DNA from: a virus
Lineage: Duplodnaviria; Heunggongvirae; Uroviricota; Caudoviricetes
IMG/VR virus record: IMGVR_UViG_3300037512_000782
Coordinates: 124,732 to 188,731 of that record
Strand: one strand, 5' to 3'
DNA: 64,000 nt
Below are positions 52,620-55,878 of the stretch, in pieces. The notes under the pieces were generated by a model. That model saw only the letters and a program-made list of their open reading frames with translations. It searched no databases and was not told where the DNA came from. Position 1 is the first letter of the stretch, and each line of letters starts with the position of its first letter. The position numbers and the translations under genes were made by a program.

Positions 52620-53089
52620 TGCGTACTATACGAATGAACGTATTCGAAACCAATTCGAGCTCGTGCCACGTCATGACCGTCATGAACGAGGAACAGCTCG
52701 CACAGTTCGACAAGAAGTGGAACGAACGGCGTAATGTCTATCCGTGCCGCCGTCTCCGTCGAGCCGATTCCGACAGCAACGAAGCTGGTCTGTACGAAAT
52801 CATCGACGACGACACCTTCTTTGCCGAAATGTATCCGAAGTTCGAACAAGTTGCAAAGACCATCGACAAGGATACTGCACGGAAGATTATGGACATGCTG
52901 TTCATGGAAAAGCCTCATGAAGACATCTTGAAGGAATTTCCGACGGTCAACCCGGAAGAACTTCAGATGTACGACTGGACTTACGTTTGCGGCAGCAGTG
53001 AAACCGTGAACTTCTGCGAATCGTATGTCGAAGGCCAAATTTCTGCTGGCAACGGAAAGTTTGCCGTACTCATTTCGATGGCTTGCTAA
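52619..53089 (+). CDS. FETNSSS-motif hypothetical protein 3
   Basis: MRTIRMNVFETNSSSCH. Confidence 0.7.
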   Translation: MRTIRMNVFETNSSSCHVMTVMNEEQLAQFDKKWNERRNVYPCRRLRRADSDSNEAGLYEIIDDDTFFAEMYPKFEQVAKTIDKDTARKIMDMLFMEKPHEDILKEFPTVNPEELQMYDWTYVCGSSETVNFCESYVEGQISAGNGKFAVLISMAC

Positions 53090-53995: not shown

Positions 53996-54331
53996 ATGGA
54001 ACTCGCCGCGTTTGCAATCTGGAAGTTTCGCAACATTGAAGGTTTCCTTCAAGGGATGCATTCGTCCGATGTCGACGTGACGAGGTATGTCGAACCCATC
54101 ACGAAGCTTGTAAGCTGGATCCGTTATGACATCAAGGCAGAAACTGCCGTGATCGAACGGACTACCAAGAAAAGCTCGATCTGGTCTATGAATGGCGGCG
54201 ACGCAGTCACGGAGAGAGTCGAGTGCAAGTTCAGTGAACTCGTCGGGAAGCTCAAGGAATTGGGGATGTATGTCGAACGTGCCGAGCATGATAGGCATCG
54301 CCTCGCTGGGCCTCAGAAGGAGGATGCGTGA
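53996..54331 (+). CDS. Hypothetical late protein
   Basis: GAGG SD; late motif at 53969. Confidence 0.6.
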   Translation: MELAAFAIWKFRNIEGFLQGMHSSDVDVTRYVEPITKLVSWIRYDIKAETAVIERTTKKSSIWSMNGGDAVTERVECKFSELVGKLKELGMYVERAEHDRHRLAGPQKEDA

Positions 54332-54832
54332 TGGGTAGCGAAGTTTAGCTCCTAGTGGGCAAACGGAAACAATCGTGGGGGCTCGCAACGGCGAAAGCCG
54401 ACGAGGACAAGGGATCAAGCCGATTTCCTAACCCTGAAAAGGGCTGAATGGTGCCTCTGCTCGAAAGAGCTCTGAGTATCGGATCTGTATGCTGAGATAG
54501 CGCATATTACGGCTCCTGGCGGTGAGGCCACGACACTGCGCTCGGCAGTGAAACTATACGGACAGATGGATACTGTCCAGAATGGAAGGCGAGAGCTGGA
54601 CACCGAGCAAGATATTTTGTCTGTACATGGGTTGGACTCCGTGTGTGGACTAACGGAACTGGCGACCGGGTCAATGCCAGACCGCTTGAGATGGGCTTTT
54701 CGAGGTTGAGCGTCAGGGATGGCGCATACGTATTAGCCCAGAGTGACGACGCAGCATGCGGATTACGAGCCGAAGCCGATTTTGTCCACGGCATGCGTCA
54801 TGCGAGAATCAGCGGATTAGCTACCCGCATGC
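54326..54832 (+). ncRNA. Large structured RNA, about 500 nt
   Basis: Closing stem GCGTG-AT-GGGTAGC / GCTACCC-G-CATGC; several GAAA-tetraloop hairpins; no credible ORF. Confidence 0.6.
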
Positions 54833-54843
54833 CTCGCAATTAC

Positions 54844-54916
54844 GCCGGATTAGCTCAGTTGGTAGAGCAGACGCCTTGTAAGCGTCAGGTCAAGTGTCCG
54901 AGTCACTTATCCGGCT
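54844..54916 (+). tRNA. tRNA-Thr(UGU)
   Basis: GACGC-CT-TGT-AA-GCGTC; T-loop TCCGAGT. Confidence 0.9.
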
Positions 54917-55279
54917 TATCGCGGTTAGCGCCATACCGCAAAATTGGTGCGAATCATAGCTGGCCTGGGGGCGGATCTGACTAATCTGCCGGACAAGTAG
55001 GTAGTGTGGGCTTAACAGTGCATTACTGAAAAACAAGTTCGCCTATGGGGGACTGCCGAGCTTAGTCGAGCGAGGCATATATCATGGGGAAAACGGTTGG
55101 CGAGTGACCGGAGGAGCCATTGCGGTGGCGAGTCTGGACGGACTGCGAGAGGCGAGTTCCCTTTGATGTCGGTACTGCTAGGGAGCGAGCTCGATTACAC
55201 TGGTACAGCCATTTGGTGATGTGGGCCGAGGCACGGATCCTTGTGGTAAAGAAAAGATAAATTCCTCCTCGGCATTTAT

Positions 55280-55352
55280 GGCTCCTTCGTCTAGTGGCCC
55301 AGGACCCCAGATTCTCAATCTGGTAACAGCGATTCGAATTCGCTAGGAGCTA
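55280..55352 (+). tRNA. tRNA-Glu(CUC)
   Basis: CCAGA-TT-CTC-AA-TCTGG. Confidence 0.9.
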
Positions 55353-55377
55353 TTACACAAATCGAAAAGGTTGAATC

Positions 55378-55700: not shown

Positions 55701-55732
55701 AAGAAGCCACCGAGAAATCGGTGGCTTTCTTT
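55701..55732 (+). terminator. Terminator at the end of the tRNA island
   Basis: AGCCACCGA-GAAA-TCGGTGGCT plus T-rich tail. Confidence 0.75.
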
Positions 55733-55733
55733 G

Positions 55734-55762
55734 TTGACACCGGAAATGATATTTACTATATT
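55734..55762 (+). promoter_or_regulatory. Sigma70-like promoter
   Basis: TTGACA-17 nt-TATATT. Confidence 0.7.
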
Positions 55763-55849
55763 GTAATTAACATCCTCACGGATGTTTCCGTCGAAAGACC
55801 CACGTTATTATTTGTCAGGATGGCCACCGAGAGATCGGTGGTCATTCTG

Positions 55850-55878
55850 TTTACATCCAAACTGTATTTTGCTATATT
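55850..55878 (+). promoter_or_regulatory. Sigma70-like promoter
   Basis: TTTACA-17 nt-TATATT. Confidence 0.6.

Follow-up and report, generated by a model that had tools for sequence, protein, structure and literature searches.

In this study, we describe a stretch of approximately 500 nucleotides (nt) from a cattle-gut phage, located at positions 54343-54843 (+ strand) of the analysed DNA, which most likely encodes an accessory structured non-coding RNA (ncRNA) of a family outside Rfam. The analysed DNA (the window, 64,000 nt) comprises bases 124732-188731 of the 348-kb record of an uncultivated virus (IMG/VR record IMGVR_UViG_3300037512_000782), and the element fills the gap between the open reading frame (ORF) ORF111 and the transfer RNA (tRNA) gene tRNA-Thr(UGU). 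We are confident that it is a real structured RNA element. The complete explanation, according to which the RNA would also be co-transcribed with its neighbours, released by RNase P and active in trans, is in our opinion probable and is held with clearly less assurance. A preliminary description of the region had proposed a large ncRNA of about 500 nt; its structured and non-coding nature, its + strand, its position beside phage tRNAs and the lack of a match to any catalogued family were all borne out, while the long stem said to close the molecule was not.

Fold, strand and base-pair covariation

Three domains can be told apart in the RNA (Table 1): the 5' one is almost invariant and rich in GNRA-capped hairpins, the central one evolves fast, and the 3' one is conserved and consists of two arms. 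Covariation had been named in the preliminary description as a check on its proposal, and compensatory base changes were indeed seen in several helices. The RNAalifold consensus of 15 near-identical copies contained 5 pairs changed on both sides vs. 0.4 in column shuffles, all five stemming from the diverged tract of the copy L035. In a RIBOSUM-scored consensus of 18 distinct copies, including L045, L046 and L047, 8 pairs were doubly changed (1.7 ± 1.2 in shuffles); none of 500 shuffles reached this value and slid controls gave 0-3. For the 3' domain plus a mini form of the element (L044), the number of such pairs was 3 vs. 0.7 in shuffles, and it was reached by 5 of 500 shuffles. To judge from these alignments, compensatory changes preserve at least eight helices. 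It must be noted that most copies were >95% identical, and that an all-against-all covariation screen was swamped by the linked changes of L035 and L045, so that its use was limited to filtering for pairs that have complementary neighbours. In addition, some hairpins have alternative long-range partners compatible with the data. The global fold is not established, because the informative lineages are few, most long-range helices do not vary and alternative partners are possible.

With respect to the individual helices of the 5' domain, hairpin H1 shows GCUC/GGGC in the majority of copies and GUCC-GAAAU-GGAC in L045 and L047, with the replacements C-G to U-A and U-G to C-G, and a U-A pair of the same hairpin became U-G in three strains. 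The pair 54391:54398 of the first GAAA hairpin was G-C in the window, G-U in most copies and A-U in 9 copies. The second GAAA hairpin appears in L046 as CCAU-GUAA-AUGG, in which a C-G pair is replaced by A-U and the loop is still GNRA. Owing to its invariance, the third one gives no covariation evidence either way. The GNRA loops, to which the preliminary description had drawn attention, were thus found to be maintained across copies, including through substitutions.

The helices of the central domain are, as far as the compared copies indicate, preserved via compensatory changes. In L035 and L045 a second form of this domain stands between near-identical 5' and 3' domains. Three different stem sequences were found for the long hairpin H17 (in the window, in L035/L045 and in L044), a 12-14-bp hairpin being kept in all of them under a (U/A)UGGAC loop. 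A 3-bp pseudoknot partner (CGG/CCG) is possible for the CUGGCG/UGCCAG helix. As for the 3' domain, the pairs 54770:54775 of arm 1 and 54803:54836 of arm 2 were each found as C-G, U-G and U-A, and 54813:54827 of arm 2 changed from C-G to U-A in L044. The loop of arm 2 is the 9-nt AUUAGCUAC (54816-54824), which is invariant and contains the palindrome UAGCUA; the mini form is without this palindrome loop.

The RNA is assigned to the + strand by its G-U intermediates and its folding energy. The energy of 54343-54843 was -179 kcal/mol on this strand vs. -156 kcal/mol on the - strand, that is, better by 23 kcal/mol, and the corresponding fold z-scores were -1.7 and -0.8. The minimum-free-energy z-score against dinucleotide shuffles was -2.4 for 54326-54832. 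Across the 348-kb genome, the + strand held 73 four-bp GNRA hairpins vs. 40-53 in shuffles, and the element was the sole 500-nt bin genome-wide with at least three of them, all three being GAAA hairpins within 82 nt.

The internal stems quoted in the preliminary description were present at the sites given there and recur in the comparative consensus fold: the three GAAA hairpins (54389-54400, 54432-54443 and 54459-54470), GGACAG/CTGTCC (54560-65/54573-78), CTGGC(G)/(T)GCCAG (54659-64/54675-80) and GACGC..ATGC/GCAT.GCGTC (54748-59/54791-99). The start of tRNA-Thr(UGU) at 54844, 11 nt past 54832, was also as described. The end-to-end closing stem of 12-13 bp (54326-54339 with 54820-54832) exists in this sequence but is not supported as an RNA feature. 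About 4% of random genomic windows pair equally well with either arm, and 32% of shuffled elements do so with the 5' flank. The 5' arm is conserved in relatives that have no element (L007, L008 and L016), where the ORF111 stop codon and the mini-ORF account for its conservation; L045 and L047 are without it and L046 has it in weakened form, the 3' arm being unchanged in these last three. Moreover, the 3' arm sits in a local hairpin, CAGCGG/CCGC.AUG, nested in UGCGAG/CUCGCA, and both of these covary. Consequently, we do not think, from the comparison of these sequences, that the closing stem belongs to the RNA. Once it is set aside, the conserved RNA extends from approximately 54343 to 54838, ending 5 nt short of the tRNA.

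Table 1. Position of the candidate RNA, its helices and its flanking genes in the window.
Feature	Position	Strand	Description
ORF111	53996-54331	+	Upstream gene, 111 codons, no Pfam family; homologues used to gather syntenic loci
Closing-stem 5' arm	54326-54339	+	ORF111 stop codon plus start of mini-ORF, outside the conserved RNA
Whole candidate RNA	54343-54843	+	From first conserved hairpin to base before tRNA-Thr; ~500 nt, ORF-free, ~30 copies
Hairpin H1	54343-54364	+	GUUU-A-GCUC / GGGC-AAAC, loop CUAGU; overlaps last two mini-ORF codons
First GAAA hairpin with outer stem	54382-54405	+	CUCG-CAA-CGGC-GAAA-GCCG-A-CGAG
Second GAAA hairpin	54432-54443	+	CCCU-GAAA-AGGG
Third GAAA hairpin	54459-54470	+	GCUC-GAAA-GAGC; invariant in all copies
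Optional peripheral hairpin	54488-54510	+	Cleanly deleted (23 nt) in L033, remainder intact
GGACAG/CUGUCC hairpin	54554-54585	+	In consensus fold; A-U to G-U in L047; variable 54566 in loop
Small hairpin GGC-GAGA-GCU	54588-54597	+	Loop GAGA/GAAA in most, GAUA in L046; G-U to G-C in L047
Hypervariable central domain	54601-54736	+	Two allelic forms, 73-80% identical
Long hairpin H17	54619-54650	+	Conserved loop UUGGAC (54632-54637)
CUGGCG/UGCCAG helix	54654-54680	+	54664:54675 G-U to A-U and 54655:54667 G-C to A-U in L035, L045
Hairpin GCGUCA-GGGA-UGGCGC	54710-54725	+	GCACGG...CCGUGC in L035, L045; three pairs changed on both sides, fourth on one
3'-domain arm 1	54748-54799	+	GACGCA/UGCGUC, UGC/GCA, GGAU/GUCC, CG.GC/GCCG; kept in mini form L044
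3'-domain arm 2	54801-54838	+	UGCGAG/CUCGCA around CAGCGG/CCGC.AUG; contains 3' arm of the closing stem first proposed
tRNA-Thr(UGU)	54844-54916	+	Found by ARAGORN and Rfam; every copy of the element has it directly 3'

Coding capacity and search for catalogued families

A conserved reading frame was looked for in the element and none was found. The ORFs in the gap were short and spurious-looking, whether the standard code or TAG or TGA recoding was applied, and the four ORFs inside the element had no Pfam match. Copies differ from each other by indels of 1, 2 and 23 nt, and also of 3 nt. In some copies the gene caller reported ORFs of 106 and 138 amino acids (aa), vs. 53 aa here, which run through the tRNA gene. 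Recoding (TAG as Q, or code 4) opened long frames, but these cross the tRNA as well; TGA is evidently a stop codon in this phage, since the TGA stop of ORF111 matches TAG or TAA in relatives.

The search of the whole window with Rfam 15 at gathering score yielded tRNAs only, and at E-values up to 10 the region 54200-55300 gave, besides tRNAs, one chance-level match to a small nucleolar RNA. The covariance models of ROOL (RF03087) and GOLLD (RF01998) had no match at gathering score or at E-values up to 10. Likewise, no covariance-model or ARAGORN match was obtained for RNase P RNA, group I/II introns, transfer-messenger RNA (tmRNA), HEARO/omega RNA, retron RNAs or small ribozymes. Given these Rfam results, the element cannot be recognised as a ROOL, GOLLD, RNase P, tmRNA or HEARO RNA, nor as an intron or a small ribozyme. 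The preliminary description had recognised no RNase P, group I or group II intron features either. Two local motifs were also considered and rejected: a canonical 11-nt GAAA receptor at CCUAAC...AAUGG, whose 3' strand is too long and non-canonical, and the interpretation of GAAAGUCGAC and ACAGAAC as resembling P4 of RNase P, which had no complementary strand and no model match.

Copies, exchange and organization of the locus

The contigs of the ORF111 homologues (24 in the protein collection) were fetched for locus comparison, and the 90%-identity cluster of ORF111 comprised 26 element-bearing contigs from ruminant metagenomes. Scanning of metagenomes for a conserved 22-mer yielded further, more diverged copies (L042, L043, L045, L046 and L047), plus the mini form L044. 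The genome-collection scan provided one more real copy, L052 (JBGVBD010000204.1), on a 4-kb contig with flanking phage genes; a match in Falsiroseomonas from the same scan was due to chance and was rejected by the RNA model. The contig of L052 was binned in a metagenome-assembled genome of a ruminal Prevotella, which is a weak hint of Prevotella as host. In total there were about 30 copies, plus one mini form of ~200 nt. BLAST searches of the phage's own genome and of the 355-kb relative G001 revealed no second copy, and the window, G000 and G001 contained no paralogue according to R1, a covariance model of the 3' domain. A motif specific to L035 had 0 matches in a scan of metagenomes, the AstE-like neighbour used as a locus probe in IMG/VR gave nothing, and in the comparison with the DNA of GenBank phages the tRNA alone matched. 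The distribution is narrow, as the family was found in just one clade of jumbo phages from the ruminant gut.

L007, L008, L016 and L010/L011, phages with an ORF111 60-79% identical to that of the window, have no element, and their tRNA-Thr lies 0-24 nt past ORF111. Approximately 489 nt (roughly 54349-54837) are therefore present here and absent from the sister lineages. Since these sister phages are without it, the element is, on comparative grounds, best regarded as an accessory cassette exchangeable among related rumen jumbo phages. The left junction, in which the ORF111 stop codon overlaps a five-codon mini-ORF, is conserved in all the compared relatives that have no element. In L045 and L047, which are without ORF111 and most of the mini-ORF, the element starts ~20 nt past an AstE-like gene. 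No target-site duplication or terminal inverted repeat was found at the element junctions.

Among near-identical strains, the element diverged by 2.5% vs. 3.2% for ORF111. In L046, with flanks (AstE-like and ORF111) 81% identical to those of the window, the identity of the 5', central and 3' domains was 97, 95 and 93%, respectively; in L045, with an AstE-like flank 70% identical, it was 98, 73 and 96%; in L007, where the ORF111 flank was 81% identical, all three domains were absent. Either the element is more constrained than protein genes, or it was recently spread by recombination, or both.

The mini form (L044:2503-2705) consists of an H17-like hairpin, CGCCGG-AUGGAC-UCGGCG, plus the two-armed 3' domain. 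It scored 95 bits against R1, and the comparison of the two forms suggests that the 3' domain is the core of the family. A different situation was observed in L002, a 54%-identical relative from a 355-kb record, in which the element site is occupied by an unrelated ORF-free filler of 215 nt (L002:4292-4507); the filler has GNRA-type hairpins and matches neither Rfam nor R1.

The tRNA genes at both sides are variable as well. Three alleles of tRNA-Thr(UGU) and three to four of tRNA-Glu(CUC) (55279-55353) were observed, with differences of 16-26% that fall mainly in the anticodon and T stems, in strains whose flanks differ by just 2-4%. This suggests cassette swapping or diversifying selection, for example by escape from host anticodon nucleases. 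Since strains also exchange the tRNA genes that flank the element, the region can be considered a cassette-exchange hot spot. In L043 (463-1270), ~800 nt are inserted between tRNA-Thr and the spacer that follows it. L010 carries a tRNA with the anticodon CUA (876-948; "Pyl" according to ARAGORN), a possible amber suppressor that has no counterpart among the 42 tRNAs of the window.

These 42 tRNA genes, identified by ARAGORN, are all on the + strand. The order at the locus is ORF111, element, tRNA-Thr, a 360-nt spacer, tRNA-Glu, ORF60 and tRNA-Ser. A consensus search of the locus found no sigma-70-like promoter or intrinsic terminator flanking the element; weak promoter-like sites are located at 53083 and 53968, and the next intrinsic terminator in the 3' direction, a strong one whose 11-bp stem precedes a T run, comes after tRNA-Ser at 55703-55728. 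In the stretch 55703-55878 (+ strand), this terminator is followed by two strong, near-consensus sigma-70-type promoters (TTGACA-17-TATATT and TTTACA-17-TATATT), which precede an NDT-like/metallophosphoesterase gene. At the other end, the ORF111 stop codon (54329-54331) overlaps, in TGATG, the mini-ORF at 54331-54348 of the + strand (ATG GGT AGC GAA GTT TAG). The mini-ORF reads M-G-x-E-V-stop, with synonymous changes and a TAA or TAG stop, and is kept in L007, L008, L016, L002 and L046; going by its sequence, a translationally coupled minigene is a possibility.

A second structured RNA candidate, and a better supported one, is the 360-nt gap that separates tRNA-Thr from tRNA-Glu (54917-55278, + strand). 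It is 80-85% conserved even in L007 and L010, which have no element, with long invariant blocks, and the RNAalifold consensus of 8 sequences contained 94 pairs, 14 of them with compensatory double changes. It had no Rfam match at E-values up to 10 and is absent from L008, L016 and L044, where tRNA-Thr and tRNA-Glu abut. In this context, ~10,000 viral structured RNAs have been predicted from IMG/VR (Fremin et al., 2023; PMC10690425).

Alternative explanations and relation to known phage RNAs

The mechanism that we propose follows the manner of ROOL and GOLLD, with which the RNA was compared on account of its size, its GNRA-rich conserved domain, the lack of a partner gene and its site in a tRNA island. 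The element would be co-transcribed with ORF111, tRNA-Thr, the 360-nt spacer RNA, tRNA-Glu, ORF60 and tRNA-Ser, up to the terminator at 55703-55728. The RNase P cut at the 5' end of tRNA-Thr (54843/54844) would free the 3' end of the RNA, leaving a 5-nt tail past the last helix, and the freed RNA would then act in trans as a compact folded particle. As to its target, we would at best guess at a role in the translation and tRNA warfare island of the phage.

Several observations weigh against this explanation. The covariation rests on four or five lineages (L035/L045, L046, L047 and L044) and perhaps a dozen independent events, and many or most of the long-range helices never vary among copies. 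The folding z-scores are modest. The element is dispensable in sister phages, and pattern scans of IMG/VR with three element motifs gave no copy outside this record. Finally, the element could exceed its flanks in identity because it spread horizontally in recent times, and not because of constraint.

The main rival explanation is that the stretch is not free-standing, being instead a cis-acting leader of the tRNA-Thr(UGU) precursor that modulates its folding, RNase P processing, stability or dosage. In agreement with this, every full copy and the mini form lie directly 5' of tRNA-Thr(UGU), the mini form keeps the tRNA-proximal 3' domain, and the last hairpin of the element contains a 10-nt CGGATTAGCT (54813-54822) that repeats the 5' end of tRNA-Thr (54846-54855) and could compete for the acceptor 3' strand. 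However, the same tRNA-Thr locus has a leader of only 0-24 nt in the sister phages, the element precedes at least three tRNA-Thr alleles that are only ~74% identical, the repeat is not kept in L044, and 500 nt with GNRA-rich domains go far beyond the needs of known tRNA leaders. We consider a leader function unlikely, the least so among the alternatives. As regards CGGATTAGCT itself, it is an exact direct repeat with a chance expectation of ~0.005, and its tRNA copy corresponds to the 5' acceptor strand and the start of the D arm; it could be a remnant of recombination inside the tRNA gene or a mimic competing for the acceptor strand.

Somewhat less credible is that the stretch is functionless filler: DNA of foreign origin, or the product of a rearrangement, would have been gained recently where the tRNA island has a recombination hot spot, and its hairpins would have no biological role. 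Related phages hold 0, ~200 or ~490 nt at the site between the mini-ORF and tRNA-Thr, L002 carries its unrelated 215-nt filler there, the tRNA alleles are also swapped at the same locus, and the recency of the gain could explain the high identity of the element. Nevertheless, the compensatory changes apparent in at least eight helices argue against filler, the GNRA loops survive substitutions, and the 5' domain varies less than the protein genes next to it, including in phages with flanks 70-81% identical. The clean deletion of a single hairpin in L033 and the modular mini form L044 also fit a modular RNA, not decaying DNA.

It is very improbable that the RNA is a part or remnant of a mobile or enzyme-associated system, such as an intron, a retron msr-msd, an IscB/TnpB guide RNA or a ribozyme. 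Its presence/absence polymorphism, sharp boundaries and spread over diverged phage backbones speak for such a system, but the Rfam models of group I/II introns, HEARO, retron RNAs, RNase P and small ribozymes had no match at E-values up to 10, the junctions have neither target-site duplication nor terminal inverted repeat, no nuclease, reverse transcriptase or maturase ORF was found within or adjoining the element, and the element does not interrupt any gene. We give practically no credence to a small protein encoded in the stretch, as the gene-caller ORFs of 106 or 138 aa on some contigs and a 211-aa frame under code 4 are countered by frames that differ between 97%-identical copies through 1- and 2-nt indels and that cross the tRNA-Thr gene, by the use of TGA as a stop and by the absence of Pfam matches for the four ORFs.

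Regarding known systems, the preliminary description had proposed "a ROOL-like or new large RNA class". That the family is uncatalogued was sustained by our searches, while membership of ROOL or GOLLD was not, there being no match to either model. The breadth of a class was not found either, in view of the single clade and of the sister phages that dispense with the element. In short, the element represents an uncatalogued family of a known kind, that of large structured phage RNAs beside tRNAs.

ROOL, an RNA both large and ornate, is encoded by phages and prophages, often beside tRNA islands (PMC12286853; PMC5737381), and forms a homo-octameric RNA-only nanocage (PMC12286853). ROOL and GOLLD are both large phage RNAs found near tRNA islands that assemble into RNA-only cages, and GOLLD, often >800 nt, is conserved in its 3' region and less so in the remainder (PMC12286853). 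The element resembles ROOL in its phage setting near a tRNA island, rumen origin, comparable size, GNRA richness and lack of a known protein partner or function. It differs from ROOL, apart from the blank covariance-model search, in being confined to one jumbo-phage clade whereas ROOL is widespread. The pseudoknotted architecture and the octameric cage are features of ROOL, the element being known here from sequence alone. With GOLLD it shares the position next to tRNAs in a phage and, in parallel to the conserved 3' region of that RNA, a 3' core that is kept in the mini form. Unlike GOLLD, which its covariance model did not detect here, the element is ~500 nt long, its 3' core of ~100 nt is unrelated in sequence, and, among full-length copies, sequence conservation is highest in the 5' domain.

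The tRNA cluster of phage T4 offers a further comparison. It contains the stable RNAs species 1 and 2 (RNA C and D), non-tRNA molecules of ~120-140 nt released by the tRNA-processing machinery. They are similar to the element in being non-tRNA RNAs of a phage tRNA operon, and their mode of release is the one that we propose here; they differ from it in length and are unrelated to it in sequence.

A more far-reaching possibility, which we regard as a long shot, is that of a new self-assembling family of large phage RNAs, in which the palindrome UAGCUA of AUUAGCUAC and the GNRA loops would mediate homo-oligomerisation into an RNA-only particle, released from the tRNA operon and used against host defences targeting tRNA or translation. 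This lead remains speculative because the mini form is without the palindrome loop of AUUAGCUAC.

The narrow distribution of the element and its dispensability limit its general importance. If the explanation proposed here is true, it would be another independent large-RNA family in the genomic niche of ROOL and GOLLD. For structure-function work, it offers a natural series comprising the full form, a form with one hairpin less, two alleles of the central domain and the 200-nt mini form. In addition, the phage also carries Ro60 and Y RNAs and the adjoining 360-nt RNA, and the finding, if true, would strengthen the idea of a toolbox of big folded RNAs in the tRNA islands of giant phages.

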